Source: an uncultured Smithella sp.
GTDB lineage: Bacteria; Desulfobacterota; Syntrophia; Syntrophales; Smithellaceae
Assembly (NCBI GenBank): GCA_964608995.1
Contig: CAZSQS010000007.1
Span: forward strand, 7,843-71,842
Reading direction: 5' to 3'
DNA: 64,000 nucleotides
A model generated the notes under the pieces. That model did no database searches, had not been told where the DNA came from, and worked only from the letters and a program-made list of their open reading frames with translations. Both the position numbers and the translations under genes were made by a program. Numbering within the stretch: the stretch's first letter is position 1; each line of letters begins with the position of its first letter. Of the stretch, positions 3,822 through 32,578 are shown piece after piece.

Positions 3822-5057
3822 ATGAAAAAACGACTGATTCTTTTTATCGGCCTGTGCCTGTTGGCAGGTCTGGCTTTCACAGGCTGTTCAAAGCACTCCG
3901 CTATTCTGCTCGATACGGGCGAACTGCCCAAAGATTATTCACGCCCTCTGCCCGAAGGCGAGCTGGCGCTTCGAAAAATTACCGATCCCGCCCAGATTCC
4001 CGACTATACACGCGCACTCGCCGATCTGGAGGGACTGGCCGAAGCCATTGACCGAAGCCTGAGCTATCTGTCCAAGCCGTCGAGCCGGCAGTTTTACCCC
4101 TATGGCGAGATCACGCATGACGGAGCCGTTAAGACGCTTCAGGCACTCAAGGCGCTTGTCACCTCCGGCATCCCCCCCGAACAGATGAACCTCGCCTTGC
4201 GGGAAAAATTCGACACATACATTTCCGTTGGCTGCGACGATCGGGGAACCGTCCTGTTCACCGGGTACTATACCCCTATTCTCGATGGATCGCTTGTCCG
4301 CACGGAGCGTTTCCGGCACCCGCTCTACGCATCACCGGATGATCTGATCAAAGACGCGGATGGCCAAATACTGGGACAGCGGGTTTCCGAAAACGAGATC
4401 CAGCCATATCCCTCACGGGTGGATCTGCAAAGCTCGGGTCAGCTTGAAGATCGGGAAATCGTCTGGCTTTCTGACCCGTTTGAGGTTTATATCGTCCATG
4501 TGCAGGGCTCGGCCAAGATCCGCCTGCCGGATGGGCAGGTGCAAACTTTCGGTTATGATGCGCACAACGGCTGGGACTATCAAAGCATTGTCCCCAAAAT
4601 GATTGCGGATGGAAAACTCGCCACAAAAAACATCAACCTCCAAGCCCTTATCGACTACTTCAAGGCGCATCCAGACGAAGTGGATAACTATGTTAACATC
4701 AATCCCCGGTTTGTTTTTTTCAAGACGCAAGACGGCAGGCCACGGGGATCGCTCAACGAACCGGTGACCCCGTTTCGAACCATTGCCACCGACAAATCCG
4801 TCTATCCGCGCGCCATGTTCGCCTTTGCCGCCGTGGATCTGGCTCGCCCCATCGGATTTGCCCTCGATCAGGACGCAGGAGGCGCCATCCGGGCGCCCGG
4901 CCGCTGCGATGTGTATATGGGCGAAGGGGAGCAAGCCGGCGAACTGGCCGGCGGCACCTATCGCGAAGGGAAACTGTATTACTTATTTTTGAAGCAGGCG
5001 GTGGACCCGTCAGCGCTTACCGGTCAATCGCCTGCATCTGGAAGCGTTGTCCCTTAA
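3822..5057 (+). CDS. mltA: Membrane-bound lytic murein transglycosylase A (lipoprotein)
   Basis: Lipobox LAFTGC. MltA-type motifs are GYYTPILDGS, VHVQGSAKIRLPDG, RFVFFK, TIATDKSVYPRAM and DAGGAIRAPGRCDVYMG. Confidence 0.85.
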   Translation: MKKRLILFIGLCLLAGLAFTGCSKHSAILLDTGELPKDYSRPLPEGELALRKITDPAQIPDYTRALADLEGLAEAIDRSLSYLSKPSSRQFYPYGEITHDGAVKTLQALKALVTSGIPPEQMNLALREKFDTYISVGCDDRGTVLFTGYYTPILDGSLVRTERFRHPLYASPDDLIKDADGQILGQRVSENEIQPYPSRVDLQSSGQLEDREIVWLSDPFEVYIVHVQGSAKIRLPDGQVQTFGYDAHNGWDYQSIVPKMIADGKLATKNINLQALIDYFKAHPDEVDNYVNINPRFVFFKTQDGRPRGSLNEPVTPFRTIATDKSVYPRAMFAFAAVDLARPIGFALDQDAGGAIRAPGRCDVYMGEGEQAGELAGGTYREGKLYYLFLKQAVDPSALTGQSPASGSVVP

Positions 5058-5724
5058 AGCTGAAGAACGCGGCCTGGCGGGTGATTTTCAGCACTTTCAG
5101 CCCATCCGGCCGGGACTGACCTTCTTTGAGTGTATGCTCGTTGATCTGAACAAAGCGTTCATTGATGTCGGCACTGTAGAAATGTAAAAATATCTTGATT
5201 TCAGGAACGCGGCTTCTCGCCTCACCAGGCAATTTGTTAAGCGGCGGATATTTGTCGGCAGAAAAATTCCCTGTCTCCCCTTCACGAACTGGCGTTTGCT
5301 CTGTGTGCATATCCGTGGAACGCTCCGGCACGCGATCTGGCACATTCGCTGCGGGCTTCTCCTCCGGGGCATACGCCATATCCTCCTGTTTTTGCAGAAG
5401 CGGCGGATCGAGCGGTTTTTGGGATTCCTGAATCAATTTGGCATCGTATTCATACATCGGCTCAGGCGCAACGCTCGCCGCGTCCGGCGCCGTCTGGTTG
5501 TGAGCCGTGCTTCCCATTTTTGAAGCGGTTTTCGTCTGCTGAGCCCACCAGTAAATCCCCGCGACGTTGATGACGATTAACAAAACCGCCAGCGCCGCCA
5601 CATAGGGCCACCATTTTTTTCGATCGCGCGGCGGCTGATGATGGTGGTCGGAAAAAAGGTCCGGCGCCGCGCCGCGATGACGGTTCTTTTCGATTTTTTT
5701 CAACCCTTCGAGGATGTAAGACAT
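5017..5724 (-). CDS. GspB/ExeB-like single-pass membrane protein
   Basis: N-terminal MSYILEGLKKIEKNR motif and one TM helix (WWPYVAALAVLLIVINVAGIYWW). The start overlaps the stop of the upstream ExeA-like gene (TAATG). The 3' end overlaps convergent mltA by 41 nt. Confidence 0.5.
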   Translation of the reverse strand: MSYILEGLKKIEKNRHRGAAPDLFSDHHHQPPRDRKKWWPYVAALAVLLIVINVAGIYWWAQQTKTASKMGSTAHNQTAPDAASVAPEPMYEYDAKLIQESQKPLDPPLLQKQEDMAYAPEEKPAANVPDRVPERSTDMHTEQTPVREGETGNFSADKYPPLNKLPGEARSRVPEIKIFLHFYSADINERFVQINEHTLKEGQSRPDGLKVLKITRQAAFFSFKGQRFQMQAIDR

Positions 5725-7355
5725 TAACGATTAACCTTTCTGCTTTCCAGTACCGGCGGTGTGTTATCGACCAGGCCTTGCAGATAGGCGACGGTCATCG
5801 GCCCAACCACTCCGTCCGGCGTCAGTCCCACACTGCTTTGAAACTTTTTTACCTCATTGGAAAGCTGTTCATCATAAATTCTTTTTCCCGTCATCGGCCG
5901 CTTTTGGATGATCGACAAATGCCTGTCGAGCCAGATCACCATCCGCCCGCTCCTTCCGATGCGCAGCTTCTGGCTATACTCGGCAGGCGGACGCCACAAG
6001 AGCGTAAAGTCGCCGCTCCAGATCAGAAATATTTCCTGAATGGCGTAAGTGTTGATAATCAGACCCTCGGCGATTTCCGCGTGATTGTCATTGAGCGACA
6101 TCAGGGTCACATAAAAATGTTTGTTGGTTTTTTCGTCCAGCAGCTTAAGAACGGCCGGTTTATTCATGGTGCGTAAGTCCATCAGATTCCCTTTGGACTC
6201 AATCGCGCTCAACCCCTCCCGGGCGGCCTGCCGCGCAATGCTTTGCTGCCTTGAAGGATCAAACGGCAAACTCCACAATCGAAAGAGTGTCTCATAGGCG
6301 TGCCTCGCGGTTATGGTTTTTTCATTGGGAGAGGGCTTGGCCAGAACTTGCCCCGCCGGTTTCATCTCGCTTTTGATGTTTGAAACCGTCACCTGGGTTT
6401 GGGGGGTATCTTTCTTCTGCGCCCTGGGCAAAACCGGCGAGGAGGAGATATTGGCGCGCCACATCAGCATGGCGAAAACCAGCAAAACAAGACTCAGTGC
6501 GGCGGCCCCGGCATAGACCAGCTTCTTTCGCGAAAGGCTTCGCCCATTGCCGACCACTTCCGCCGCCGCTGTCGCGAGGGTTTTTTTATCCACCTCATCC
6601 CGATTCTGTATGAAGGCGCCCACCAGAGCCCGGTCGCAAATGGCGTTGATCAGCCGGGGAATTCCACCCGAAAGCCGGAAAAGCAGATTCAGCGTGTCAT
6701 CGGGAAACAGGCGCCCGCGCCGCCATCCCGCCACGCGCAGACGGTGCTCAACGTATTGCCCCACCTCGGTTCGCGACAGAGGCCCCAGATGGTAGCGGGC
6801 CGTAATGCGCTGCGAGAGCTGGCGCAACTCCGGCCTGGACAACAGATCCAGAAGCTCCGGCTGCCCCAGCATGATGATCTGCAAAAGCTTTTTTTTGTTG
6901 GTCTCCAGATTCGTCAGCAGGCGGATCTGTTCAAGAACATCGGGCGTAAGATTTTGCGCCTCTTCAATAATCAGAATCGCGCGCCGTCCCTTCTCGTGTG
7001 TCTGTAGAAGATAGGTGTAAATTTCAGAAACCAAAACCTTGTTGCTGTTGGTCCCTTCGGGATACAGTATGGAAAACTCATCGCAGATGCTGGCGAGCAA
7101 TTCAACGGAGGTGACTTTCGGATTCAGGATGAAGGCAATATCGGCGTTGTCCGGCGCCTGCTCGAGCAGGCAGCGGCAAACCATGGTTTTTCCCGTGCCC
7201 ACTTCGCCGGTAAGCAGAATGAATCCACTGTCGGCGCCCATGCCGTAAATGAGATGCGCCAGCGCTTCCCGATGCCCGTCGCTCATATAAAAATAATGAG
7301 GGTCGGGCGCAATCGAAAAGGGATTCTCCTTGAGTCCAAAATACTCTTTATACAT
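5724..7355 (-). CDS. ExeA/GspA/MshM-like AAA ATPase with C-terminal peptidoglycan-binding domain
   Basis: FGLKENPFSIAPDPHYFYMSDGHREAL, Walker A LTGEVGTGKT and a Walker B-like ILIIEEAQ. One TM helix. C-terminal FQSSVGLTPDGVVGPMTVAYL matches a PG_binding_1-type motif. Confidence 0.8.
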   Translation of the reverse strand: MYKEYFGLKENPFSIAPDPHYFYMSDGHREALAHLIYGMGADSGFILLTGEVGTGKTMVCRCLLEQAPDNADIAFILNPKVTSVELLASICDEFSILYPEGTNSNKVLVSEIYTYLLQTHEKGRRAILIIEEAQNLTPDVLEQIRLLTNLETNKKKLLQIIMLGQPELLDLLSRPELRQLSQRITARYHLGPLSRTEVGQYVEHRLRVAGWRRGRLFPDDTLNLLFRLSGGIPRLINAICDRALVGAFIQNRDEVDKKTLATAAAEVVGNGRSLSRKKLVYAGAAALSLVLLVFAMLMWRANISSSPVLPRAQKKDTPQTQVTVSNIKSEMKPAGQVLAKPSPNEKTITARHAYETLFRLWSLPFDPSRQQSIARQAAREGLSAIESKGNLMDLRTMNKPAVLKLLDEKTNKHFYVTLMSLNDNHAEIAEGLIINTYAIQEIFLIWSGDFTLLWRPPAEYSQKLRIGRSGRMVIWLDRHLSIIQKRPMTGKRIYDEQLSNEVKKFQSSVGLTPDGVVGPMTVAYLQGLVDNTPPVLESRKVNR

Positions 7356-8381: not shown

Positions 8382-8906
8382 TCAGACTTGCACGATACAA
8401 ACATCCGGCAGGAATCGGTCCTGCTCATTGTAATCAAGCCCATATCCGACGACAAATCCATCCTCCATCGTAAAACAGACATAATCTGCTTCCAGGGGAA
8501 CCTCCCTGCGCCTGAGCTTGTCCAAAAACACGCACACCTTAATCGACCTGGGATTTCTCTTTAGCAGGGTATCGATAATATAGCGAAGGGTCAGACCCGT
8601 ATCAATAATGTCCTCCACCACAATGACATCCCGGCCTTCGATGGCCATCTCGATGTCTTTGGTGAGACGAATCTGGCCGGAGCTTGTAGAACCGGCGCCA
8701 TAACTGGCCGCGCGGATGAAATCCAGCTGGCAGGGAATGGTGAGCTCCCGCGCCAGGTCCGCCAGAAAAATAAAAGCGCCCTTGAGCACACCGATCAGTA
8801 ATATTTCGCTGTCCGGATAATCTCTGGATATGTCGCCTGCAACTTCTTTGACCCGCCGCGCAATTTCGCTTCGGGAAAGAAAAACCTCCCTGGATGCCTC
8901 AACCAT
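8382..8906 (-). CDS. hpt: Hypoxanthine phosphoribosyltransferase
   Basis: LLIGVLKGAFIFLADLAREL and the PRPP-binding motif DVIVVEDIIDTGLTL. ATG 8906 has an AAAGGAA upstream. The track start at 8912 is a TTG. Confidence 0.9.
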   Translation of the reverse strand: MVEASREVFLSRSEIARRVKEVAGDISRDYPDSEILLIGVLKGAFIFLADLARELTIPCQLDFIRAASYGAGSTSSGQIRLTKDIEMAIEGRDVIVVEDIIDTGLTLRYIIDTLLKRNPRSIKVCVFLDKLRRREVPLEADYVCFTMEDGFVVGYGLDYNEQDRFLPDVCIVQV

Positions 8907-8968
8907 GAACAATTCCTTTAAATATCGTGGAATTTTGGGAAAATACTACTCAAGATCACCGCCGCCTG

Positions 8969-9790
8969 TCAATATAAATTCCAACGACGGCACAAGGAAA
9001 CAAACGCATTGATATTATCCCACACCATTTTTTCCGCCGCATCCAATTCTTCGGTACAGGAAAATTCGGATGACAGACTCAGCAGGATGGGATTAAGCGG
9101 GGAGATCTCCCGCCCGAATTTTTCATAGTCAATGTGAGAGATCATGTACTGCGATCCGTCGAAATAATATTTACCCAGGCGGTTGGCTTCTTCCGAATGA
9201 AACGGCCAGGCCATTTTCCAGGATAAATATTCAAGCGCCGTTTCGCTGAGCCCGGGGAGATCAAAATCTTCCGCTTTGATTTCGCGGCCGATACGATCGG
9301 CAATCAGCTTAAAATACGTCACGACCAGATCGATGTCTGTCAGGCACAGGCCATACAGATACCAGTCTTTAATCAGCTTGAGCAAAATAAGCTGCTGGGA
9401 GCGCGGTATAAAATGATGGCTGGGGCACAGATGACCCGCGCAGACTTCCTGCCCGTAAAAAGAGACGCCGCGCAGATCCACGCCGCCATTTTGCAAAGGA
9501 TGCAAAAGACAACCGACGCGTTTTTCGTCGGCATCGAGAAAGCCCAGATACTCGCAGCAGTAAATGACTTCATAGCGCTTGCGGAAATCCTCCGAAGCCA
9601 GCGTCTCCTGCGCATAGCGCTCCACATCGGCGGGGGCCTTGACCATTTCGCGGAAACGTCTCGTCCGCGCGCGAAGTCTTTTTGTCAGGGATTCCCGCGA
9701 CGAATCCACATAATTATATAAACCGCAGCAGGCGCCGCAGGATTTTCCCGGATCCGGCTGGCACAACACTTTGATATCCGCAGACGACAT
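8969..9790 (-). CDS. Hypothetical Cys-rich protein (CxxCC motif, YkgJ/UPF0153-like N terminus)
   Basis: 273-aa ORF with SCGACCGLYNY near the N terminus and further Cys/His clusters (CAGHLCPSHH). No other domain recognised. Confidence 0.45.
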   Translation of the reverse strand: MSSADIKVLCQPDPGKSCGACCGLYNYVDSSRESLTKRLRARTRRFREMVKAPADVERYAQETLASEDFRKRYEVIYCCEYLGFLDADEKRVGCLLHPLQNGGVDLRGVSFYGQEVCAGHLCPSHHFIPRSQQLILLKLIKDWYLYGLCLTDIDLVVTYFKLIADRIGREIKAEDFDLPGLSETALEYLSWKMAWPFHSEEANRLGKYYFDGSQYMISHIDYEKFGREISPLNPILLSLSSEFSCTEELDAAEKMVWDNINAFVSLCRRWNLY

Positions 9791-9927
9791 CTCAACCTCT
9801 TTTTCAACGGCCTGGCCTGTATCCCTCTTGCGTCAGGCGGGCGCAACTTATAGAAGGATAAGCGTTGCAGGTCAAGACTAAAAATGGTAATACCCCGCCA
9901 AATGAATGAACAGGACATGAAAAATCC

Positions 9928-10364: not shown

Positions 10365-12842
10365 ATGACACAAACTATTGCCGATGCCTTGTTGCATTTA
10401 GCTGAAAAACCGAGCCGCTATATCGGCACGGAAGTCTCTGCCGCGCGCAAATCCGCAGCGGATTTACGTTTTTTACTGGCCTTCCCCGACACCTATGAAG
10501 TGGGCATGTCGCATCTGGGCCTGCAAATTCTCTATGCCGTGCTCAACGCGCGCGAAGGCGTCTGGGCCGAGCGCTCATTTGCCCCTTGGCCGGATCGCGA
10601 AGCCCTGCTTCGCGAGCGCGGCTTGCCGCTGACCTCGCTGGAATCCGGCTCACCGCTTTCGCAGTTTGATCTGGTTGGTTTTTCACTGCAATATGAACTC
10701 TCTTACACCAATGTGCTCAATATGCTGGATTTGGGCGGCGTGGCGATTCGATCCGCCGACCGACGCGAAACGGATCCGCTTATTCTGGCGGGCGGCCCCT
10801 GCGCTTTTAATCCCGCGCCACTTTCGGCTTTCATCGATGCCTTTGTCATCGGCGAGGGGGAACAAGCCATCCTGGAAATTGCCGAGAGCGTCATCGAGTG
10901 CAAAAAGCAAACGCTTTCCCGGCGTGCCGCGCTCGAGAAGCTCGCGAGGATTCCGGGCGTCTATGTGCCCTCCCTGCATGTCCCCGGGAACGTCATCTCC
11001 AGGCGCGCGCCTGTCAATCTCAATGACTGGCCCCATCCTGTCTCGCCGGTGGTGCCGCTCATGCAAACCGTGCATGACCGCATCGTCATAGAGCTGGCCC
11101 GCGGCTGCACGCGCGGCTGCCGGTTTTGCCAGGCGGGCATGCTCTGGCGTCCGTATCGCGAACGAAACGCATCGCAAGTTCTGGAAATGGCAAAGCAGAC
11201 GCTCGGAAACACAGGACATGACGAAATCTCGCTTCTGGCGCTCAGCGCCGGCGATTACAGTTGTATTGAACCCCTGATGCAGGCGCTGATGCAAAAGCAT
11301 TCGGCTGAAAAAGTCGCGCTGGCGCTGCCGTCGCTTCGCGTGGAAACCCTGGGACAGGCGCTGATTGAGGAAATCAAGCGCACGCGCAAAACCAGTTTCA
11401 CGCTGGCGCCCGAGGCGGGAACAGACAAAATGCGCCGCATCATCAACAAGGGCAACACCGCGCAGGATCTTTTGACGTCCATCGATAAAGTCTTTGCCTC
11501 CGGGTGGAAAGCCGTCAAGCTCTACTTCATGATCGGGCTGCCCGGCGAAGATGAAAGCGATCTTGCCGGCATTGTAGATTTGAGCTACGCGGCGCTTGGC
11601 GCGGCAAAAAGGCGCGGCCAGATCACCGTGAGCCTGTCCACCTTTGTTCCCAAGCCGCACACACCGTTTCAGTGGGCCGGGCAGTTGTCTTTGGACCAAA
11701 CTAAGGAGCGGCAGAATTTCCTGCGGCAAAAAATGCACAACCGCAATCTCAACGTCAAATGGCACGACGCACGCATGAGCCTCCTGGAGGGTCTGTTTTC
11801 ACGCGGCGATGAACACATCGGCCACCTTCTGGAAATCGCATGGCGCAAGGGCTGCCGCTTTGACGGCTGGGGCGAGCTTTTGCGCTTTGATTTGTGGGAA
11901 AGCGCCATTGGCGAAGCCGGAATATCGGTTGACGACTATCTGCGGGAGCGATCCACCACCGAGCCCCTGCCTTGGGATTTTATTGACTGCGGCGTCAGCT
12001 GCGAATTTCTTATCGCCGAAAAACACAAAGCCATCGAGCAGCAAACCACGGCGGATTGCCGGTTTGATGTCTGTCAGGCCTGCGGCGTGTGTGACTTTAA
12101 AGAGATACAGAATATCTTTTCCGACAAAGACTTTGGCACGCCGCATCAGGCCCCTGTCGCACCTGCGCAGATGGCGCCCCTGCGTGAAAAAGTCTATCGA
12201 TTAAGCTTTGCCAAAACCGGCCGGTCACGATTTTTATCCCATCTGGAGCTCGCGTCGGCGCTGACGCGCGCGCTTCGACGAAGCCCCTTGCAGCTTTCCT
12301 ACTCCGAAGGCTTTCATCCGCATCCCAAAATCTCGTTTGCCACGGCCACCTCCGTGGGCATGGAAAGTTTCTCGGAATTGCTCGATATCACGGCCCGCGA
12401 GTTTCCAGGCGATCTGGCCGTGCTTCAGAAGAACATCAATGCCGCCTTGCCGGAAGGTGTTTATGTTACGGCCATTGCGCTTTTGCCTTACACCGCCCCG
12501 GACCTCGCCCGCGCGCTTAAGGGATTTTGCTATGATCTGGTCTTGCCCGCCGATACGGACGATTCGAGACTGCAAAGGCTGGATCACAGCCTGCGCGCAT
12601 TTCTGGCCGCGGACACGTATGTCATCACCCGCATGGCCAAAGGCAAATCAGTCAAGCGCGACATCCGTCCCTTTGTAAAAAGCCTCACGCTTTCGACGCC
12701 GGAAAAGAAAGTGATCGCCGAGGTCAGCCATGCGCAAAACGGCTCCGTGCGCCCGGTGGACATCATCGAACACATTATGGGATTTCCGGCCGATGCCATT
12801 CATCTTGTCACCATCGTTAAAACACACACGCTTCTGATCTGA
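10365..12842 (+). CDS. B12-binding-domain radical SAM protein fused to a DUF2344-type C-terminal domain (TIGR03960/TIGR03936-like)
   Basis: ELARGCTRGCRFCQAG matches the CxxxCxxC radical SAM motif. There is an N-terminal B12-binding-like region and a C-terminal YRLSFAKTGRSRFLSHLEL...EGFHPHPKISF segment typical of DUF2344. Confidence 0.8.
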   Translation: MTQTIADALLHLAEKPSRYIGTEVSAARKSAADLRFLLAFPDTYEVGMSHLGLQILYAVLNAREGVWAERSFAPWPDREALLRERGLPLTSLESGSPLSQFDLVGFSLQYELSYTNVLNMLDLGGVAIRSADRRETDPLILAGGPCAFNPAPLSAFIDAFVIGEGEQAILEIAESVIECKKQTLSRRAALEKLARIPGVYVPSLHVPGNVISRRAPVNLNDWPHPVSPVVPLMQTVHDRIVIELARGCTRGCRFCQAGMLWRPYRERNASQVLEMAKQTLGNTGHDEISLLALSAGDYSCIEPLMQALMQKHSAEKVALALPSLRVETLGQALIEEIKRTRKTSFTLAPEAGTDKMRRIINKGNTAQDLLTSIDKVFASGWKAVKLYFMIGLPGEDESDLAGIVDLSYAALGAAKRRGQITVSLSTFVPKPHTPFQWAGQLSLDQTKERQNFLRQKMHNRNLNVKWHDARMSLLEGLFSRGDEHIGHLLEIAWRKGCRFDGWGELLRFDLWESAIGEAGISVDDYLRERSTTEPLPWDFIDCGVSCEFLIAEKHKAIEQQTTADCRFDVCQACGVCDFKEIQNIFSDKDFGTPHQAPVAPAQMAPLREKVYRLSFAKTGRSRFLSHLELASALTRALRRSPLQLSYSEGFHPHPKISFATATSVGMESFSELLDITAREFPGDLAVLQKNINAALPEGVYVTAIALLPYTAPDLARALKGFCYDLVLPADTDDSRLQRLDHSLRAFLAADTYVITRMAKGKSVKRDIRPFVKSLTLSTPEKKVIAEVSHAQNGSVRPVDIIEHIMGFPADAIHLVTIVKTHTLLI

Positions 12843-13050: not shown

Positions 13051-13127
13051 GCATCTTAACCATTTACGGATTCAAGCGATAGGGGCATTCATCAATAGTC
13101 GTAAAATTAAAAATTTGGAGGAGTAAA

Positions 13128-14516
13128 ATGAAAAAAAGCTTTTTAATGGTTCCCATTTTGTTATTGGCGTTTCTGATGACCGCCACATCGGGTCATGCGC
13201 AGTGGTGGTGGATATCCAGCTCCTCCTCTTCGAGTTCATCTTCGTCCAGCTCTTCTTCTTCGAGTTCGTCCGGATCAAGCTGGTGGTGGATTTCAAGTTC
13301 TTCTTCGTCTTCGTCTTCTTCGAGTTCATCGTCATCGAGCTCCAGCAGCTCTTCTTCCGGTTCTTACTCCGATCCCGGAACAGGCCCGTTTGCTTTAGTG
13401 CCGGACAATCAGGTGGCTAATGCCTGCAAGCTGGATCCCAATCTGCTCAAAACCGCCGACCGGACCATCGGCGCGCCCTATATCATTGTGCGCTACGGAA
13501 AGCTCTGCCATCAATACCTGCCCAACGGCACGGACCGCGCGGCTGAAGTTTATTCCACCACCAAATCGCTGGGCGGGGCCGTCACGGGCGCGGTTGCCTA
13601 TGAAACACGCAATATGAACCGCACCGGCCGCAAAACCGGACCGCTTTCAGACGTTGACCGTGTGGATCACTGGCTGGATCGTTTCAGTTATAATGATGAC
13701 GCCCTGATCGCCCACGTGCTGGCCATGGTGGCCCATAACCGCAGCCTGACCAACGGCCGCATGACCTATGAGTACGATACCGTCGGCTCCGTTCAGATCA
13801 ACAGCTTAAGCGATATCATCAACACGGCCATCGCGCAGGATTCCAGCCGCCTGGGCCGCAACATCGATGAATTCACAAAACGGTTTGTTTTCAATCCGTT
13901 GGGCATGACCAACTCCACCTGGTCCAACGGATCGTCCAATAAAACCTTCGCCTACACCTGGTCAACGACCATGCACGACATGGCACGTCTGGGGCTGATG
14001 ATCCTGCACCGTGGCACGTATAACGGCAAACGCGTGATGTCGGAGGGCTGGGCCTATCGCATGACGCATCCCGCTTTTGAAGAGGCCAACACCGCTTACG
14101 GCTATTTGACCTGGCTCAATTCCCGCGGTGGCGGCACGGGTCCCGGAGGCGCCGGCACGGGTACGGATGGTGATACGTGCGCGCCGGCAGCTTTATGGAA
14201 CAGCTACCCGCACTATCCGTCCACATATCCGAACTGCAAAGCCAGTCTTGGAAATAATTGCAATCAGGTCAATGACATGGGCGTCTGGAGCGCACAGGGC
14301 ATGGGCGGCCAGTTCATTGTGGGCCATCCCGGACTGGATCTCCTGATCGTTGCTAAAAATTTCAGCGGTGGCGACGGCCCCACCGGCCTTTGGAAGGCCA
14401 TTCGTCCGGCGCTGGTGGCGCTGGATCCCGTTTACAAGGGTAACGAATCGTCTTTCTGTTCGGCCTACGCCGCAACGACTTACGCGCCGGATATGCCGAC
14501 CCAGCCCAAGCCGTAG
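13128..14516 (+). CDS. Secreted beta-lactamase-fold serine hydrolase (esterase-like) with N-terminal WWW-polyserine tail
   Basis: GGAGGAG RBS. Signal peptide MKKSFLMVPILLLAFLMTATSGHA with an AxA-type cleavage site before QWWW. The tail is QWWWI-S19-GSS-WWWI-S22-G. The catalytic part has the S-x-x-K motif (YSTTKSLGG). Confidence 0.8.
   Translation: MKKSFLMVPILLLAFLMTATSGHAQWWWISSSSSSSSSSSSSSSSSSSGSSWWWISSSSSSSSSSSSSSSSSSSSSSGSYSDPGTGPFALVPDNQVANACKLDPNLLKTADRTIGAPYIIVRYGKLCHQYLPNGTDRAAEVYSTTKSLGGAVTGAVAYETRNMNRTGRKTGPLSDVDRVDHWLDRFSYNDDALIAHVLAMVAHNRSLTNGRMTYEYDTVGSVQINSLSDIINTAIAQDSSRLGRNIDEFTKRFVFNPLGMTNSTWSNGSSNKTFAYTWSTTMHDMARLGLMILHRGTYNGKRVMSEGWAYRMTHPAFEEANTAYGYLTWLNSRGGGTGPGGAGTGTDGDTCAPAALWNSYPHYPSTYPNCKASLGNNCNQVNDMGVWSAQGMGGQFIVGHPGLDLLIVAKNFSGGDGPTGLWKAIRPALVALDPVYKGNESSFCSAYAATTYAPDMPTQPKP
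13200..13361 (+). repeat. WWW-polyserine tail module (protein-level low-complexity repeat)
   Basis: Codon-by-codon reading gives CAG TGG TGG TGG ATA, 19 Ser codons, GGA TCA AGC TGG TGG TGG ATT, 22 Ser codons, then GGT. All six Ser codons are used. Confidence 0.95.
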
Positions 14517-14561
14517 CAGGCACATTACTGCATTGTTTGGAACGCACTAAAAATTCATTAA

Positions 14562-14598
14562 CCTGAGGAGGACGGGCTTTAAGCCCGCCCTCCTCAGG
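14562..14598 (+). terminator. Rho-independent terminator candidate after the first tail-bearing gene
   Basis: CCTGAGGAGGACGGGC / GCCCGCCCTCCTCAGG form a 16-bp stem with one mismatch and a 5-nt loop, followed by TATTTACATTTTT. Confidence 0.6.
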
Positions 14599-14614
14599 TA
14601 TTTACATTTTTCTT

Positions 14615-14649
14615 GTCCCGTAGCGTCCCATCGCGGGACAAATATGTCC
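14615..14649 (+). promoter_or_regulatory. Second copy of the GTCCCG...CGGGAC / GGACA-N4-TGTCC upstream inverted repeats
   Basis: GTCCCGTAGCGTCCCATCGCGGGACAAATATGTCC. The GGACA at 14636 is exactly 100 nt upstream of the GG at 14736. Confidence 0.45.
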
Positions 14650-14734
14650 GACCATCTGATGGCCACATCAGGCACGTTCACCTTATAAATCAATATCACT
14701 TAACAATACAATAGTTTACAAACCATGTGCCTCA

Positions 14735-14751
14735 TGGCACAGATATTGATT
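14735..14751 (+). promoter_or_regulatory. Sigma-54-like -24/-12 promoter candidate
   Basis: TGGCACAGATATTGATT has a perfect TGGCAC -24 box and TTGA at the -12 position. It lies 99 nt upstream of ATG 14835. Confidence 0.5.
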
Positions 14752-14834
14752 GTTGATGTGTGCCACAAAGAGATGCGCCGTAAATGGATTTTCGGCGGAA
14801 AATTAAAAAAAACAAACAGCGCGGAGGGGAAAAG

Positions 14835-15773
14835 ATGAAAAAGTTTTTATTTATAGTTCCAATTCTGTTTTTGGCATTTCTGATTGCCTCATCAAACGGT
14901 TACGCCCAGTGGTGGTGGTTCTCCAGTTCATCATCTTCCAGTTCAAGTTCGTCTTCCTCAAGTTCAAGTTCAAGTTCAGGTTCAACGTGGTGGTGGATTT
15001 CCAGTTCATCATCTTCCAGTTCGTCGTCCAGTTCTTCATCCTCTTCATCCTCAGGAGCCACAGGTTCAGTTGAAGCCAGAATTGAAGCGGGTGGAACCAT
15101 CCCGGCGGGAACCTACACGCTGACCCGGAAAATTTCCATCTCAAAAAGCGGACTGACCATCACGGCCAACAATGTCATTCTTGACGCGAAAAACTTAACC
15201 GACACGTCCTCGGGCGACGCCATCACCATCAGTGGCAGCAATAACAAGCTCATCGGCATCACCGTCAAGAATGCCGGACATAACGGCATATTAATCAAAG
15301 GCAACGGCAACACCCTCCAGAACTGCATCACGCATTCCAATAAGAACACAGGGATAAACATCAAGGGCAGCGCGGCCAACAACCTCATCACCGGCTGTAA
15401 ATCCTATAACAATTACGACACGCATACCTCCGGTGAAAATGCCGACGGCTTTGGCGTGAAGGATTGCACCGGCAGCGGCAATAAATTTGAAAACTGCGAA
15501 GCCTGGGATAATTCAGACGATGGCTGGGATTTCTGGGGCACGACGGGCGCCGTAACCGTCATCGGTTGTTATGCGCACGATAATGGAAGAGGTTCAGCCG
15601 GAGACGGCAATGGCTTCAAGCTGGGTGAAAGCGGCGTTTGCGGCAGGCATTATTTGAAAGATTGCACCGCCAAGAACAATCTCGCCTGCGGTTTTACGAA
15701 AAATGGCAACACCTGCACAATCACCTATGTCAATTGCGTCAGCAGCAATAACGGAAAGGTGGACAAACGGTAG
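14835..15773 (+). CDS. Secreted right-handed parallel beta-helix protein, pectate-lyase-like (PL9-like by motif) with N-terminal WWW-polyserine tail
   Basis: GGAGGGGAAAAG precedes ATG 14835, and the track start at 14784 lacks an RBS. Signal peptide MKKFLFIVPILFLAFLIASSNGYA precedes QWWWF-S19-GST-WWWI-S18. Repeated beta-helix turns (NNKLIGITVKNAGHNGILIKGNGNTLQNC...), GENADGFGVKD and DNSDDGWDFWG. Confidence 0.75.
   Translation: MKKFLFIVPILFLAFLIASSNGYAQWWWFSSSSSSSSSSSSSSSSSSSGSTWWWISSSSSSSSSSSSSSSSSSGATGSVEARIEAGGTIPAGTYTLTRKISISKSGLTITANNVILDAKNLTDTSSGDAITISGSNNKLIGITVKNAGHNGILIKGNGNTLQNCITHSNKNTGINIKGSAANNLITGCKSYNNYDTHTSGENADGFGVKDCTGSGNKFENCEAWDNSDDGWDFWGTTGAVTVIGCYAHDNGRGSAGDGNGFKLGESGVCGRHYLKDCTAKNNLACGFTKNGNTCTITYVNCVSSNNGKVDKR
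14907..15053 (+). repeat. WWW-polyserine tail module
   Basis: QWWWF, 19 Ser codons, GGT TCA ACG TGG TGG TGG ATT, 18 Ser codons, then GGA. Confidence 0.95.
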
Positions 15774-15903
15774 TTTTTTGTCGGATCAGAAAAAGGCGGC
15801 TATTTGAAAAAAGGCAGGTACCAAAAGGCTTCGGCGGATCAAATGAGACAAAGCCGTTTATTGCCGGAGCAAATATAAATCAGTTTTAAAGGGAGGGGAA
15901 AAG

Positions 15904-16710
15904 ATGAAAAAGTATTTATGGATGATTCCGGTTTTGTTTTTGGCATTCCTGATTGCCTCATCAAACGGTTATGCCCAGTGGTGGTGGTTCTCCAGCTCAT
16001 CATCTTCCAGTTCAAGTTCGTCTTCCTCAAGCTCAAGTTCAGGCTCAACCTGGTGGTGGATTTCCAGTTCCTCATCCTCCAGCTCATCCTCTTCCAGTTC
16101 GTCTTCGTCAAGCTCTTCGTCTTCAGGATCGGGTGGAACGATGACGATTACCAGCACGATTATCGTTAAAGCGGGGGCCACCTATGACGGCAAGGGCGTC
16201 ACCATCAAGGCCGTGGGGCTTGGCGACGGCAGTCAGGACGAAAATCAGAAACCCATTTTTCGGCTCGAAAACGGCGCAACGCTTAAAAACGTCAACATCG
16301 CCGCGCCCGGCGCAGACGGTGTGCATTGCTACGGCGGCTGCACCGTCACCAACGTGGTCTGGCAGGATGTGGGCGAGGATGCCCTGACGATTAAATCCTC
16401 CGGAACGGTCACAATCAATAATTGTAAATTTTACAAAGCCACCGACAAGGTCATTCAGGTCAACGCTGCAAGCACCCTGTATGTCAACAACAGTTCCGCC
16501 GACACCATGGGCAAATTTATTCGCCAGAATGGCGGAACGACGTTCACCTGCACATGGTATTTAAACGGCGTGAACATTAAAAATGCCTCGGAATGCATCG
16601 CGCGAACGGACAGCTCGACCACGAAACTTTATTACAGAAACCTGACCTACTCCAACGTCGGCACCTTGTGGAAGTTCCCCAATGCCGGCAGCCAGGTCAA
16701 ACCCTACTAG
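15904..16710 (+). CDS. Secreted pectate lyase, PL3-type, with N-terminal WWW-polyserine tail
   Basis: Same RBS string GGAGGGGAAAAG. Signal peptide MKKYLWMIPVLFLAFLIASSNGYA precedes QWWWF-S17-GST-WWWI-S21. The catalytic part (GDGSQDENQKPIFRLENGATLKNVNIAAPGADGVHCYGGCTVTNVVWQDVGEDALTIKSSG...FIRQNGGTTF) closely resembles Bacillus/Fusarium PL3 pectate lyases as I remember them. Confidence 0.85.
   Translation: MKKYLWMIPVLFLAFLIASSNGYAQWWWFSSSSSSSSSSSSSSSSSGSTWWWISSSSSSSSSSSSSSSSSSSSSGSGGTMTITSTIIVKAGATYDGKGVTIKAVGLGDGSQDENQKPIFRLENGATLKNVNIAAPGADGVHCYGGCTVTNVVWQDVGEDALTIKSSGTVTINNCKFYKATDKVIQVNAASTLYVNNSSADTMGKFIRQNGGTTFTCTWYLNGVNIKNASECIARTDSSTTKLYYRNLTYSNVGTLWKFPNAGSQVKPY
15976..16125 (+). repeat. 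WWW-polyserine tail module
   Basis: QWWWF, 17 Ser codons, GGC TCA ACC TGG TGG TGG ATT, 21 Ser codons, then GGA. Confidence 0.95.
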
Positions 16711-16919
16711 TCTGCGTTCAAGGCTGGTCTGGTTTATTTTTTTTCGACAAAGATGAGAAACACCGACATGCTCTTCCAGGGAAGGAAGATCAGGGCGCCC
16801 CAAGTCCATGAAAGGGTGCGGGGCGCCTAAACCTGGTCATACCCGATACCATCGGAAACCGCCATATCGGCCTTTGGACCATTGACATGAAAGCCGGATG
16901 AGTCCGCACGGAGGGGAAA

Positions 16920-18554
16920 ATGAGAAAAAGCTTTTTGATCTTTCCTGTTTTGTTTCTGGCATTGCTGGCAATAGCCACAACAAGCCATGCCCAGTGGTGG
17001 TGGATTTCGAGCTCATCTTCCTCTTCCAGCTCATCCTCCAGCTCTTCATCCTCAGGCTCCTCGTGGTGGTTTATCAGTTCATCATCTTCTTCATCCAGTT
17101 CGTCGTCCAGTAGTTCGTCGTCATCTTCTTCTTCTTCCTCCTCGTCGTCTTCATCGTCGAGTTCTTCGTCAGGTACGACGTTTAAAAACCCGCTTAACGG
17201 TTCCGGCCCTGACCCGTGGATGACTTACTATAACGGAAATTACTACATGGCGGCAACCACGTGGGGCGGCGCGAACACGGGTCTGACCATGCGCAAGGCG
17301 CCAATCATCGCGGCGTTGAAAACCGCGCCCCAGACGCGTATCTGGCAGGATTCGACCTCATCGCGTTGCTGCAATATGTGGGCGCCGGAGTTCTTCCTGC
17401 TTAACGGCCCCAACGGCTGGCGCTGGTATGGCTATTACACGGCGGGCCCGACGACCTGTTGCGACGGCCAGCGGCTCCATGTCATTGAAAGTGCGGGAAC
17501 CGACCCGATGGGACCCTATACCTATAGGGGTCAACTTTCCGATACCACCGGCGGATGGATGATTGACGGCAGCATCCTCCAGTTAAACGGCAAACTCTAC
17601 CTGCTGTTTTCCGCATGGAGCGGCAGTAATCAAAATGTTTACATCGTCGGCATGACCAATCCATGGAGTCTTACCGGCAACCGGGTGCTGCTCTCGACGC
17701 CAACCTACAGTTGGGAGAAACAGGGAGGCAACGTCAACGAGGGCCCCGTGGCGATCCAGAGAAATGGCAAGACGTCTGTAGTCTATTCCGCAAGCGCCTG
17801 CGCCAATCAAAATTACGCAATGGGCCAGATGACCCTGACGGGAACCAACCCGCTGGTGGCCTCTGCCTGGAGCAAGAAATCGACCGCCGTCTTCACAAGG
17901 GCCAACGGGGTTTACGGCCCCGGGCACAACACCTTCTTTACCTCCCCGGATGGATCGGAAACCTGGATGGTCTATCACGGCAATGCCTCTTCGACCGGCG
18001 GATGTGATATGTACCGCCAGCCGCATATCAAAAAGATCGCTTTTAACAGCGATAACACCCCCAGTTTGGGAAGCCCGATCAATCCGGCCAACTCCGTCAC
18101 CGTCCCCTCCGGGGATAAAGGCGCGGGCGCGCGGCCCGTCTATCGCATCGCCAACCGCAATAGCGCCAAGGTGTTGGAAGTCGCCAACTGTAACGCAGCG
18201 GATGGCACCAACATCCAGCAATACGCGTCACTGGGCAATACCTGCCAGCAGTGGACCACGCAGGATACCGACAGCGGGTATGTCATGATTGTGAATGTCG
18301 CTACCGGCAAACTTCTGGAAGCAGCGGGATGCGGCACATCGGATGGAACAAACATCCAGCAGTGGAGCTGGCTGAAAAACACCTGCCAGCAGTGGAAGCT
18401 GGTGACCACTACCAGCCCGTACGTGAAAATCATCAACCGCGCAAGCGGCAAGGTGCTGGATGTCTCCAACTGCTCCACCGCCAATGGCGGCAATGTCCAG
18501 CAATGGAGCGATCTGGGAAATTCCTGCCAGGAATGGCAGATCACATCACCGTAA
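16920..18554 (+). CDS. Secreted GH43-family glycoside hydrolase with C-terminal ricin-type (CBM13-like) beta-trefoil and N-terminal WWW-polyserine tail
   Basis: GGAGGGGAAA RBS. Signal peptide MRKSFLIFPVLFLALLAIATTSHA precedes QWWWI-S16-GSS-WWFI-S32. GH43-like motifs are GPDPWMTYYNGNYYM, WAPEF, GPGHNTFF and WMVYH. The C-terminal region has three QxW repeats (CQQWTT, CQQWKL, CQEWQI) with IQQY/IQQW/VQQW. Confidence 0.8.
   Translation: MRKSFLIFPVLFLALLAIATTSHAQWWWISSSSSSSSSSSSSSSSGSSWWFISSSSSSSSSSSSSSSSSSSSSSSSSSSSSSSSGTTFKNPLNGSGPDPWMTYYNGNYYMAATTWGGANTGLTMRKAPIIAALKTAPQTRIWQDSTSSRCCNMWAPEFFLLNGPNGWRWYGYYTAGPTTCCDGQRLHVIESAGTDPMGPYTYRGQLSDTTGGWMIDGSILQLNGKLYLLFSAWSGSNQNVYIVGMTNPWSLTGNRVLLSTPTYSWEKQGGNVNEGPVAIQRNGKTSVVYSASACANQNYAMGQMTLTGTNPLVASAWSKKSTAVFTRANGVYGPGHNTFFTSPDGSETWMVYHGNASSTGGCDMYRQPHIKKIAFNSDNTPSLGSPINPANSVTVPSGDKGAGARPVYRIANRNSAKVLEVANCNAADGTNIQQYASLGNTCQQWTTQDTDSGYVMIVNVATGKLLEAAGCGTSDGTNIQQWSWLKNTCQQWKLVTTTSPYVKIINRASGKVLDVSNCSTANGGNVQQWSDLGNSCQEWQITSP
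16992..17174 (+). repeat. WWW-polyserine tail module (second triplet is WWF)
   Basis: QWWWI, 16 Ser codons, GGC TCC TCG TGG TGG TTT ATC, 32 Ser codons, then GGT. Confidence 0.95.
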
Positions 18555-18597
18555 GAGAAAAAAGAAGCTATTAAATTCATGAAGGAAGGAGTTCACT

Positions 18598-19821
18598 ATG
18601 AAAGACAGGTTTTTTAAAAGAGGAATCTCCGTTCAGATGGCGCTGACCGGACTCGTTTTTGCGCTGGTTTTGTTTGCGGCAGGCGCTAATCAGGCTTTTG
18701 CGCTATCCGGCGATTACCGCACGCACGACCCCAGTATGATCCGGGCGACCAACGGCTGCTATTACGCCTTTTCCACCGGCGACAACGCCTACAATCGGGG
18801 AAACATCCAGATTCGCAGATCCTGCGATCTGGTCAGCGGCTGGAAGCTGCTTGGCACGGTCTTTACCACCGTCCCCTCCTGGATCAGCTCCGCAATCGGC
18901 TCGACGCCGGGAAATCTCTGGGCGCCGGATATCAATTACTTTAACAACAAATACTATCTGTACTATTCCGCCTCCACGTTCGGCTCGAACCGCTCGGCCA
19001 TCGGTCTGGCCACGGCTACAAACATCGAAGGCCCCTGGACGGATTCGGGTCAGGTGATTCGCTCCTCAACATCCAACAACTACAACTGTATCGATCCGGA
19101 AATCGCCTGGACCATCACCAACAATCAGCGCGCCGAGATGTGGCTGTTGTTCGGCTCCTTCTGGGACGGTATCAAAATGCGTCAGCTCAACAATTCGACC
19201 GGCAAACTCTCTACGACCAAAACCACGCTGTATTCACTGGCCTCCCGTGGCGGCGGCGCAATTGAGGCCGCCTCCGTCGCGTGGCGCAACGGGTATTACT
19301 ATCTGTTCGTTTCATTCGACAAATGCTGCAGCGGCACGAGCAGCACCTACCGCATCATGGTGGGCCGCTCCAAAAATATCACCGGGCCGTATGTCGATAA
19401 AAGCGGCGTGGATATGCGAAACGGCGGCGGCACGCAGGTTCTGACTAAATCCAGCAACATGGTCGGCCCCGGCGGCCAGGATGTCTTTCTTGACGGGTCA
19501 ACCTACCGCATGGTCTATCACTACTATGATTCCAACCAAAACGGCGACTTTCGGATGGCCATCCGGGATCTGAACTGGTCGGGCGACTGGCCCGCGGCAG
19601 GCTCCATGTCTTCTGCTGTCAGTTCGTCTTCGTCAAGTTCCTCCAGCTCGTCGAGTTCATCCTCCAGTTCTTCGTCCAGCTCGTCGTCCTCGAGTTCGTC
19701 TTCCTCGTCTTCAAGCTCATCGTCTTCGAGTTCGTCAGGATCAAGCTGGTGGTGGTCCACAAGTTCGTCTTCAAGCTCATCGTCTTCGAGTTCGTCAGGA
19801 TCAAGCTGGTGGTGGTTTTAA
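18598..19821 (+). CDS. Secreted GH43 arabinanase-like glycoside hydrolase with C-terminal WWW-polyserine tail
   Basis: GAAGGAAGGAG RBS only 43 nt after the previous gene. It has its own, different signal peptide (…LVLFAAGANQAFA). GH43 arabinanase-like motifs are YRTHDPSMI, LWAPDINYFNNKYYLYYSAS, DPEIAW, FGSFWDGIKM and GPGGQDVF. The C terminus is S39-GSS-WWW-ST-S12-GSS-WWWF-stop. Confidence 0.8.
   Translation: MKDRFFKRGISVQMALTGLVFALVLFAAGANQAFALSGDYRTHDPSMIRATNGCYYAFSTGDNAYNRGNIQIRRSCDLVSGWKLLGTVFTTVPSWISSAIGSTPGNLWAPDINYFNNKYYLYYSASTFGSNRSAIGLATATNIEGPWTDSGQVIRSSTSNNYNCIDPEIAWTITNNQRAEMWLLFGSFWDGIKMRQLNNSTGKLSTTKTTLYSLASRGGGAIEAASVAWRNGYYYLFVSFDKCCSGTSSTYRIMVGRSKNITGPYVDKSGVDMRNGGGTQVLTKSSNMVGPGGQDVFLDGSTYRMVYHYYDSNQNGDFRMAIRDLNWSGDWPAAGSMSSAVSSSSSSSSSSSSSSSSSSSSSSSSSSSSSSSSSSSSSSSGSSWWWSTSSSSSSSSSSSSGSSWWWF
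19621..19818 (+). repeat. C-terminal WWW-polyserine tail module containing an exact 52-nt direct repeat (19705-19756 and 19765-19816)
   Basis: Codon reading gives 39 Ser, GGA TCA AGC TGG TGG TGG TCC ACA, 12 Ser, GGA TCA AGC TGG TGG TGG TTT, then TAA. The 52-mer TCGTCTTCAAGCTCATCGTCTTCGAGTTCGTCAGGATCAAGCTGGTGGTGGT occurs twice with a 60-nt period. Confidence 0.95.
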
Positions 19822-19856
19822 TTCAACTGCTCATTGAGCAAATCGCAAACACACAA

Positions 19857-19886
19857 AAAGCCGGGGATTGCCCCGGCTTTTTTTTA
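19857..19886 (+). terminator. Rho-independent terminator after the five-gene block
   Basis: AGCCGGGG ATTG CCCCGGCT hairpin followed by TTTTTTTT. Confidence 0.8.
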
Positions 19887-20033: not shown

Positions 20034-20894
20034 TCACCGCAATTTTTCATACACCATCATGACGGTGTTGACATAAACCTCGCTGCGATTGTAATACCAG
20101 ATGGCTTTTCGCTTTTGCTCATCGGAAGCGCTTTCCCGCCAGCCGAATTTCTTCAGATAGTAGCCCATGCTGAACTTTGCATCCGTCAGGTTAAACGGAT
20201 CGGCGAGGCCGTCTTCGTCTCCATCAACACCGAAAAGCCAGAAAGACGATGGAATAAACTGAGCCGGCCCCATGGCGCCGGCAAACGACCCGGCAATGCT
20301 CAAAGGATCAATATTGAGGTGGTCAGCAATGTAAATCAGATGCGCCAGTTCGCCAAGCGCCCAGTTGGCCCGTTTGCGAATACGCTTGTAGGTTTTCTCT
20401 TCTTTGAGCTGGGGATACTCATCCACATAGCGATTGCGGAATTTCAGCAAGTAATCCGGATCCAGTAAAAAGGCCAGATTGGCATAAGCCGTGGCCACAT
20501 TGTAAGGCATGGGATACGTGCCCAGCCGTGATTCGATGAGCAAAATGGCGGTGATGATCCGAGGCGACGTGCCGTAACGCGCTTCAACGGCCGCAAGCGT
20601 CCCCGCGTGCTCAAGCATAAACGCCGCGGAGCGCTGAATCTGCGCGGGAGGAATTCGCATCACATCCGGGCGTTCGGCTGATCCTTTCGGGCTGGAATAA
20701 AAAAGGTTTTTAATGACAATATCCGGCCGGACCTCAACGCAATCTTCACACAGGATACTTTGCGCCTTCGCAGGGTCAATCCCCCGGCCAACGAGCAAAG
20801 CCTCCACTGTTGCCCGCTGCGCCCAGGCTGCACCTGAAAAGAAAACGAATGCCGGCACAACCACGGCCAATCCATACCAGAGACTTCTTCTCAT
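20034..20894 (-). CDS. Lytic murein transglycosylase (MltB/SLT_2-like)
   Basis: Signal peptide. ILLIESRLG (catalytic Glu context) and GSFAGAMGPAQFIPSSFWLFGVDGDEDG. Confidence 0.8.
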   Translation of the reverse strand: MRRSLWYGLAVVVPAFVFFSGAAWAQRATVEALLVGRGIDPAKAQSILCEDCVEVRPDIVIKNLFYSSPKGSAERPDVMRIPPAQIQRSAAFMLEHAGTLAAVEARYGTSPRIITAILLIESRLGTYPMPYNVATAYANLAFLLDPDYLLKFRNRYVDEYPQLKEEKTYKRIRKRANWALGELAHLIYIADHLNIDPLSIAGSFAGAMGPAQFIPSSFWLFGVDGDEDGLADPFNLTDAKFSMGYYLKKFGWRESASDEQKRKAIWYYNRSEVYVNTVMMVYEKLR

Positions 20895-32341: not shown

Positions 32342-32578
32342 ATTGCGTTACACATCTTTCTTTCCAAACATTCATCGCGTCGGCGGACAAAATCGTTTTT
32401 ACCGTACAGTCTTAAATTAACTTTTTACCTGAAAAAATCAACTACCGATTTTTCTTTTTCGCCATAAAGACCGATATTGAGTCAAATATCGCATCCGACG
32501 CGAAAATAATTGACACTGTGGCTGTTTTTAAGGTATTTTTCGCGGAAAGTCAGATATATCCGGTATCGGGAAGGTTGC

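Follow-up and report, generated by a model that had tools for sequence, protein, structure and literature searches.

The window analysed here, a 64,000-nucleotide stretch of contig CAZSQS010000007.1 (assembly GCA_964608995.1) from an uncultured Smithella sp., contains an island of five adjacent plus-strand genes (g1 to g5, Table 1) whose products have unrelated folds and share one terminal tail, in which long serine runs are capped and interrupted by clusters of consecutive tryptophans. This tail is an undescribed terminal module that is best filed under the theme of the polyserine-linker carbohydrases, with Trp clusters taking the place of the lipobox or of the carbohydrate-binding module (CBM) at the end of the leash. 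A first-pass annotation of this DNA had pointed out the five genes and their common tail, and both the open reading frames (ORFs) and the tails were confirmed.

In g1 to g4, a 24-residue signal peptide ending in G/S-x-A is followed by Q-WWW-[IF]-S16-19-G-S-[ST]-WW[WF]-I-S18-32 and then by the enzyme, and the Ser runs between W-W-[WF] clusters comprise 12-39 residues across the five genes. A recount of codons gave exactly the run lengths noted earlier for g1 to g4 (19/22, 19/18, 17/21 and 16/32) and the same order of units in g5, and the codon tally agrees that the runs use all six Ser codons. Ten WW[WF] clusters lie beside Ser runs in a six-frame translation of the window, all of them in the tails of g1 to g5, and DNA patterns written for the tail unit gave 5-6 matches in the window against 0.00 expected (100 shuffles).

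As had been proposed, the tail lies outside any described domain or sorting signal: no model of Pfam or NCBIfam matches it, so that no curated family in these two collections already covers it, and no description of it was found among the papers searched. At E-values up to 1, no NCBIfam sorting-signal model (PEP-CTERM, GlyGly-CTERM, LPXTG, MYXO-CTERM, T9SS CTD) matched; the C terminus of g5 (...GSSWWWF) has no transmembrane segment and four of the five tails are N-terminal, which does not correspond to a C-terminal sorting signal. The leaders end in SGHA, NGYA or TSHA before Q, and Cys is absent from the first 80 residues of g1 to g4, leaving no lipobox of the form [LVI][ASTVI][GAS]-C. Two serine-rich adhesin/surface models, NF033849 and NF042931, score 8-24 bits on the tails against cutoffs of 650 and 80, i.e. 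low-complexity noise. No tail contains a basic residue and all are fused to enzymes, which sets them apart from Trp-rich cationic peptides, and the lack of any CBM profile or Pfam match within them sets them apart from folded CBMs. The class that they come closest to is that of the polyserine linkers of secreted carbohydrate-active enzymes, with which they share Ser stretches longer than about 10 residues (12-39, in five proteins) and the mixed use of Ser codons (six codons); Howard et al. are said to have noted in 2004 that polyserine linkers are encoded by mixed Ser codons and not by one repeated codon. Such a linker joins two folded modules, or a lipobox and a module, but on the far side of the runs described here there is only WW(W)[IF].

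The tail is predicted to be disordered and undocked: AlphaFold2 applied to g3, with a 34-sequence alignment that is uninformative for the tail itself, gave a beta-helix with a predicted local distance difference test score (pLDDT) above 90 from residue 79, and left residues 17-73 below 50, without secondary structure and undocked. A propeptide or autoinhibitor docked on the enzyme is rejected for now, as AlphaFold leaves the tail undocked and five unrelated folds carry it.

Similarity between g1, g2, g3 and g4 at the DNA level starts at the ribosome-binding site (RBS) and spans signal peptide and tail, the DNA further upstream being unrelated. The g2 and g3 copies are 91% identical over 156 nt and the g1 copy, whose leader is homologous at the DNA level to the three others, is 74-77% identical to them over 107 nt (repeat families D2 and D3). 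In these four genes, signal peptide and tail form one DNA cassette, portable between genes. Comparison of g4 with its orthologue o4, which has another signal peptide and no tail, is in line with this, the signal peptide having also been replaced by the cassette type when the tail was gained. The two GSSWWW units of g5 have an identical 40-nt stretch in common, which indicates that this pair probably results from a recent tandem duplication. The Ser-coding DNA consists of imperfect units of 6-30 nt; the runs are thus no simple trinucleotide microsatellite, yet they do grow and shrink. The earlier argument that the use of six codons speaks for selection and against slippage therefore stands for its first half, the peptide being under purifying selection (see the 0/97 count below), but not for its second, since the repeats are multi-codon and their length drifts between strains. 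Antisense ORFs of 87-97 aa across the N-terminal tails (13072-13335, 14851-15144 and 15839-16111, minus strand) were rejected as by-products of the low-complexity DNA, not credible genes.

Comparison of three strains separates what is conserved in the tail from what is not. AQWWW[FI] and GS[ST]WW[WF]I are invariant, and the Ser runs range over 15-24 and 18-32 residues (19/18 vs 20/24 in g2, 17/21 vs 15/21 in g3). Not one of 97 aligned tail codons shows an amino-acid change, versus 24/433 codons in the catalytic domains that these genes encode (Fisher p = 0.012), and about half of the aligned tail Ser codons differ silently, a figure inflated by register ambiguity within the runs. Selection preserves both the Ser and the Trp residues, at set places relative to the termini, and leaves the exact length of the spacer free; such constraint is what one would expect of a leash with a functional end.

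The origin of the tail can be followed in related species. A syntenic locus (L140, GCA_964525155.1), reached through a PL3 search, has the order radical SAM, g2 orthologue, PL3, GH43-ricin, GH43, second GH43, lytic transglycosylase (SLT) and two MCP genes. Its g2 orthologue (8749-9651) begins with a leader ending in GYA followed by QWW-S7-TSG-WW-S21-TSSSG, its second GH43 (13443-14621) ends in ...S28-GWW-S12-GWW-LSSN-stop, and its PL3, GH43-ricin and first GH43 are tail-less. Positional conservation of the Trp residues had been set beforehand as a test, and L140 does keep the clusters in place, one at the free terminus and one a Ser run further inward, as doublets. This locus has no g1, and it carries, besides the second GH43, a 464-aa repeat protein (14762-16156, minus strand; PD40/WD40-like by eye), with nothing comparable in the window.

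Two further syntenic loci (L148 and L149) and a non-syntenic one (L150) are tail-less, as are the g3 orthologues P0003 and P0004 (72-78% identical). In L148, a PL1 gene (Pectate_lyase_4, 8926-9843) is found in place of the PL3 gene. Pairwise alignments with tail-less orthologues place the tail as an insertion that separates the predicted signal peptidase I (SPase I) site from the residue where the mature domain starts, or that follows the last residue of the domain. Tailed genes make up 0/4 of the island in L148, 0/2 in L149, 2/5 in L140 (WW doublets) and 5/5 in the window (triplets), a gain and spread of the tail along this set of relatives. By its housekeeping proteins (62-70% identity), the window species falls outside the group of L140, L148 and L149, and its radical SAM protein is 66-70% identical to those of these three loci, which are 72-78% identical among themselves. 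The mature domains encoded by the tailed g2 alleles of the window and of L140 are nevertheless 88% identical (75-79% in comparisons with untailed alleles), and because the window species is the outgroup, this suggests that the tailed g2 allele was laterally exchanged between species. Both tailed species have been assembled from one read set, SRR11845623 (L141, L142).

The tail is found in other samples as well. Part of the g3 tail and the entire g4 tail occur in L139 (SRR8925804), identical to the window, L151 (SRR13394437) carries g2 and g3, both with tails, and four contigs from SRR11845623/25/26/35 finish in ...SSSGSSWWWF-stop. As the tails recur in assemblies of independent read sets, they are not an assembly artefact. 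One of the source run series comes from pig-manure anaerobic digesters (PMC13644194). Short-read (Logan) contigs L142, L144, L146 and L147 break off in the duplicated GSSWWW unit of g5 (window ~19790-19821), and since contigs end there in four samples, short-read assemblies fragment inside tails.

Protein catalogues are affected too. By exact look-up, none of the five tailed window proteins is in a collection of 15 billion proteins in which their untailed neighbours are found, and the same holds for the two tailed L140 proteins, absent from the collection where untailed L140 proteins are present; g3 is recorded there only as a 189-aa product from Met80, just past the tail (window 16141-16710). 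Because tailed proteins are absent or truncated, such catalogues cannot measure the frequency of the tail, and its apparent rarity in protein space is uninformative. Likewise, a profile of seven real tail units run against 5.8 billion proteins gave 8000 word candidates and zero matches at E-values up to 10, a null that is no evidence of absence, as the composition correction of HMMER cancels Ser/Trp low complexity.

A strict two-cluster DNA pattern (WWW...WW[WF]), blind to WW doublets, has no true instance in 185,579 species representatives (one genome per species, the window's own genome evidently not included), its 18 matches being all (TGG)n microsatellites or out-of-frame GC-rich DNA. In metagenome contigs, the matches listed for the first pattern were dominated by (TGG)n microsatellites, as the IUPAC triplet WSN also fits TGG. 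A corrected pattern, TGGTGGTGGWYN(WSN)5N{15,45}(WSN)3GGN(WSN)2TGGTGGT, in which WYN follows the first WWW, recovers 8/8 true sites and removes 122/138 false sites, and it has 0 matches in 2.9 million viral contigs; a form for WW doublets would be, for instance, TGGTGG(WSN)6N{0,60}GGNTGGTGG(WSN)4. Nearly all sequenced species representatives lack the triplet form, and the tail is present in at least two co-resident digester species, in several strains.

The five genes follow one another between a radical-SAM gene (10365-12842) and an SLT gene (20034-20894, minus strand), and their nearest named protein matches are proteins of Desulfobacteraceae metagenome-assembled genomes. Pfam and NCBIfam bear out the folds first proposed for four of them: a beta-helix for g2, PL3 for g3, GH43 with ricin trefoil for g4 and an arabinanase-like GH43 for g5, whose match to NF053747 (1.9e-91) is below the equivalog cutoff. 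The assignment of g1 to the beta-lactamase fold is weaker; its STTK (SxxK) motif is present and conserved, but it scores 20.6 bits with Pfam Beta-lactamase (cutoff 27) and its matches to Lsa45 and NylB in the PDB are weak. The initial label of five secreted hydrolases is right as to five enzymes, but two of the five are lyases. The g2 frame is open for 17 codons further 5', to an ATG at 14784 (window 14784-14834, MDFRRKIKKNKQRGGEK-), but judging from the RBS and from DNA homology with g3, the real start is probably 14835. A scan of the island for promoters and terminators gave counts not above those of shuffled sequence. Only one terminator-like element is convincing, a hairpin that separates g5 from the convergent SLT gene and is plausibly a bidirectional terminator.

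Table 1. Features of the tailed gene island (window coordinates)
Feature	Position	Strand	Description
g1	13128-14516	+	Secreted beta-lactamase-fold serine hydrolase family protein (fold weakly assigned); N-terminal tail; SxxK = STTK
g1 signal peptide	13128-13199	+	MKKSFLMVPILLLAFLMTATSGHA; predicted SPase I cut after GHA; no Cys, hence no lipobox
g1 tail	13200-13358	+	Q-WWW-I-S19-GSS-WWW-I-S22
g2	14835-15773	+	PL9-like right-handed beta-helix (Beta_helix / Pel9A-like; Pfam and NCBIfam); N-terminal tail
g2 tail	14907-15053	+	Q-WWW-F-S19-GST-WWW-I-S18
g3	15904-16710	+	PL3 pectate lyase (Pfam PF03211, 1.5e-48); N-terminal tail
g3 tail	15976-16125	+	Q-WWW-F-S17-GST-WWW-I-S21
g4	16920-18554	+	GH43 and two ricin trefoil models (CBM13-like; Pfam); N-terminal tail
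g4 tail	16992-17171	+	Q-WWW-I-S16-GSS-WWF-I-S32
g5	18598-19821	+	GH43 endo-arabinanase (AbnA-like; NCBIfam NF053747 1.9e-91, Pfam GH43); C-terminal tail
g5 tail	19621-19818	+	S39-GSS-WWW-ST-S12-GSS-WWWF, then stop
5' cassette, copy 1	13116-13271	+	RBS, signal peptide and first tail unit (repeat search, alignment)
5' cassette, further copies	14823-14978, 15892-16047, ~16917-17023	+	Repeat search
Hairpin	19855-19882		12 bp, GC-rich, A and T runs at its sides; between convergent g5 and SLT genes

More distant homologues, from other lineages, show what can stand at the position of the tail. The g1 family has 2646 homologues in a representative protein library, and of the 47 representatives whose leader is complete, at least 23 have a lipobox, next a low-complexity linker of 20-175 aa and then a conserved DPG-x-GPW domain start; none of these 47 has a WW cluster. 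In the distant g2 orthologues P0133 and P0134, the place of the tail is taken by a lipobox and a short linker of acidic or Ser-Gly type. In position, the tail is the equivalent of a lipobox with its linker. In the 408 homologues retrieved, no Trp cluster lies beside a Ser/Thr run, WWW does not occur anywhere and the longest Ser run is 8.

The function that we tentatively favour is that of a lipid-free anchor to the cell envelope, in which the Trp clusters are the payload of a polyserine tether. Since a linker must join two things and only WW(W) lies beyond the Ser run, the Trp cluster itself would be the second module, and the tail would be a two-part appendage, with polyserine as a flexible, protease-poor spacer and the Trp clusters as its functional far end. 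The enzymes would be exported by Sec, and cleavage by SPase I after G/S-x-A would expose a Gln, likely cyclised to an uncharged pyroglutamate, followed by WWW-[IF]. The terminal cluster and the second one could then partition into the membrane or lipopolysaccharide (LPS) interface, so that a leash of 2-10 nm would keep the enzyme at the cell envelope or bound to vesicles, and no lipid-modification machinery would be needed; the length calculated for this leash is 4-14 nm (contour), or ~2-3 nm as a random coil. Tryptophan has the strongest preference of any residue for the membrane interface. With Wimley-White interfacial values, the estimate comes to about -5 to -6.5 kcal/mol per WWW and about -3 to -4 per WW, and two clusters might provide an avidity comparable to that of a lipid anchor. 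A passage on peptides in PMC7160233 that cites Zarena 2017 says that WWW motifs target the membranes of bacteria. The presence of Lnt, MltA and GspA/GspB-like genes indicates that the host is a diderm. An anchor of this purely physical kind could work as the same unit at either terminus and move between genes, with no accessory gene needed, and the use of both termini, in the window as in L140, would fit a physical anchor and not an enzyme-processed signal. The tether, one of the options raised by the first-pass annotation, also draws indirect support, by analogy, from the homologues with lipobox and linker and from Chi18B of Saccharophagus degradans, where the order lipobox-polySer(~110)-GH18-polySer-GH18 has been interpreted as an outer-membrane tether (PMC3124978).

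Several points weigh against such an anchor. The orthologues closest to the island proteins (o3, o4, o5a and those of L148, L149 and L150) are plain secreted enzymes without an anchor, and tethering is therefore not required for these enzymes. The outer leaflet of diderms is LPS and not phospholipid, and the Trp-rich peptides known to bind LPS are cationic, when the tail has neither Arg nor Lys. The WW doublets, at about -3 to -4 kcal/mol each, would be weak anchors, and if the enzymes do not cross the outer membrane, the tail would act in the periplasm. Finally, an adhesive tag for plant particles would fit the same facts equally well.

That last alternative, in which the Trp clusters would be a minimal unfolded binder of carbohydrate or lignin, stacking on sugar rings or lignin aromatics like a CBM reduced to its aromatics and carried on polyserine, is in our estimation rather unlikely, although much of the setting agrees with it. 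All five carriers are plant-wall enzymes of one pectin/arabinan island, CBMs, too, are typically placed at either terminus, the presence of two clusters would provide avidity, and the habitat, manure-fed digesters, is rich in lignocellulose particles. Polyserine linkers in Cellvibrio and Teredinibacter usually connect a CBM with a catalytic domain, and the known polyserine systems mostly do so (PMC3124978). Known CBMs, however, are folded and have spaced co-planar aromatics, a strip that three adjacent Trp cannot form where the chain is, as predicted here, disordered. Moreover, g4 already has a ricin-type CBM and is tailed all the same, g1 is probably esterase-like and has lipoproteins rather than CBM-bearing proteins as homologues, and no precedent was found in the literature searched. 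The clusters could also bind each other, Trp-Trp stacking of bivalent tails linking the five co-expressed enzymes into a scaffold-free "pectinosome", with clusters as stickers and Ser runs as spacers. The presence of one tail on all five complementary enzymes of a co-oriented cluster, its stepwise spread to more genes of the island, the spacer predicted to be disordered and the exactly two clusters per tail, i.e. the minimum valency for chains, would suit this arrangement, and Trp is reported to promote peptide aggregation via pi-pi interactions in a passage of PMC7160233. Two short stickers would nonetheless amount to very weak multivalency at extracellular dilution and only 2/5 of the L140 enzymes are tailed, so that we consider self-assembly distinctly unlikely, even if the sequence data do not separate it from surface anchoring.

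Two other explanations would give the Trp clusters a partner encoded elsewhere, or no role at all. Near-neutral expansion, by which a recombinogenic Ser-rich leader cassette was spread by gene conversion and merely tolerated, with Trp clusters devoid of any specific role, would account for the spread of the cassette by DNA homology, for its repeat-unit DNA of drifting length, for closest orthologues that work tail-less and for an occurrence in two species only so far. It is very unlikely in view of the ten clusters of Trp, the rarest residue and one with a single codon, that have remained unsubstituted between paralogues, in three strains and in a second species, with 0/97 non-synonymous changes; of the aligned Ser codons, by contrast, about half show silent differences (a count inflated, as said, by register ambiguity). 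The C-terminal version, in addition, cannot come from the spread of a 5' leader and yet has the same architecture, and an exchange of the tailed g2 allele between species seems to have taken place. The least probable of the explanations weighed here is a tag recognised by an enzyme or a secretion system encoded elsewhere, such as an O-glycosyltransferase acting on Ser, a sortase-like transpeptidase, or a system for outer-membrane translocation or vesicle loading. Ser-rich regions are known beside sorting signals or in glycosylated adhesins, the invariant G-S-[ST] that precedes the internal clusters has, like the Gln next to the cleavage site, the look of a motif, and GspA/GspB-like genes are present 6 kb upstream. 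Known processed signals, however, sit at one fixed terminus, whereas four genes of the island have the tail at the N terminus and the fifth has it at the C terminus, and both termini are used in L140; no NCBIfam sorting-signal model matches; and no glycosyltransferase or sortase-like gene is present among the ORFs scanned in the 64 kb of genome that make up the window. The genes flanking the island (GspA/GspB-like, MltA, radical SAM, SLT, MCPs, L21/L27/Obg, M48 and others) are also found in tail-less relatives and this, together with the use of either terminus, weakens a tag option that the first-pass annotation had listed beside the tether.

The GspB-like (T2SSB) and GspA-like (AAA_22 and PG_binding_1) genes form a pair at 5017-7355 (minus strand), 6 kb upstream of the island, which is kept in tail-less relatives and is thus not tail-specific. 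Elsewhere in the window, a gene for a 753-aa protein with an eCIS_core domain (PF13699, 4.8e-21) at 36621-38882 (+) adjoins a tRNA-Arg(CCG) gene (36417-36493). A 730-aa ORF upstream of it (32510-34702, +) has zero Pfam matches.

If the Trp clusters do act as an anchor or glue, this would be the simplest known way to keep secreted enzymes near, with no lipid pathway, sortase, scaffoldin or folded binding domain involved. It would amount to some 50-70 residues that could be attached to either end of any exported protein, i.e. a ready tag for surface display or for the co-localisation of enzymes. A broader proposal, which we regard as doubtful at this stage, is that the tail is an encoded, machinery-free and position-independent anchor or glue that pins enzymes to the envelope or to vesicles, or zips the five of them into a scaffold-free complex, that its cassette hops between genes and between co-resident species, and that such tails are systematically under-counted by gene callers, catalogues and short-read assemblers. 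The series of relatives with 0/4, 0/2, 2/5 and 5/5 tailed genes shows with unusual clarity how a functional low-complexity module arises and spreads in one gene island. The case also exposes a blind spot, tailed proteins being missing from or truncated in the 15-billion-protein collection, erased by the bias correction of HMMER and broken by short-read assembly, and modules of this type may be commoner than databases suggest.

Among known systems, the polyserine-linker carbohydrases (S. degradans Chi18B, Cellvibrio, Teredinibacter) are the closest, in that long Ser homopolymers are found in the secreted polysaccharide-degrading enzymes of a diderm and, as in Chi18B, a Ser run directly follows the signal peptide with the enzyme at its far end. 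The tails of the window differ from these in four respects: 1) they have no lipobox Cys and are preceded by a predicted SPase I site (G/S-x-A before Q); 2) their Ser runs are capped by WW(W), not by a lipid or a CBM, and a second cluster interrupts the run; 3) the unit can also be C-terminal; 4) the host is an anaerobic-digester bacterium and not a marine gammaproteobacterium.

The order of anchor, flexible low-complexity linker and enzyme is that of surface lipoprotein enzymes, and at least 23/47 of the g1 homologues, as well as the g2 homologues P0133 and P0134, are of this type at the equivalent position, but the tails lack the Cys and acylation by Lgt, Lsp and Lnt, the proposed anchor being peptide-encoded and able to stand at the C terminus. 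Tritrpticin and designed triplet-Trp peptides also have three Trp in a row, which act there as a membrane-seeking element at the interface (PMC7160233, PMC11858513). They are short peptides of cationic (Arg-rich) character that disrupt membranes, whereas the clusters described here are uncharged, flanked by Ser and borne by enzymes of 20-55 kDa. Small type-A CBMs with Ser-rich linkers (CBM10, CBM1), lastly, resemble the tail by an aromatic element at the protein terminus and a Ser-rich link to the catalytic domain; they are folded, of at least 35 aa, often with disulfides and with spaced co-planar aromatics, whereas the element found in the island consists of 2-4 consecutive aromatics in a chain predicted to be disordered and has no Pfam match.

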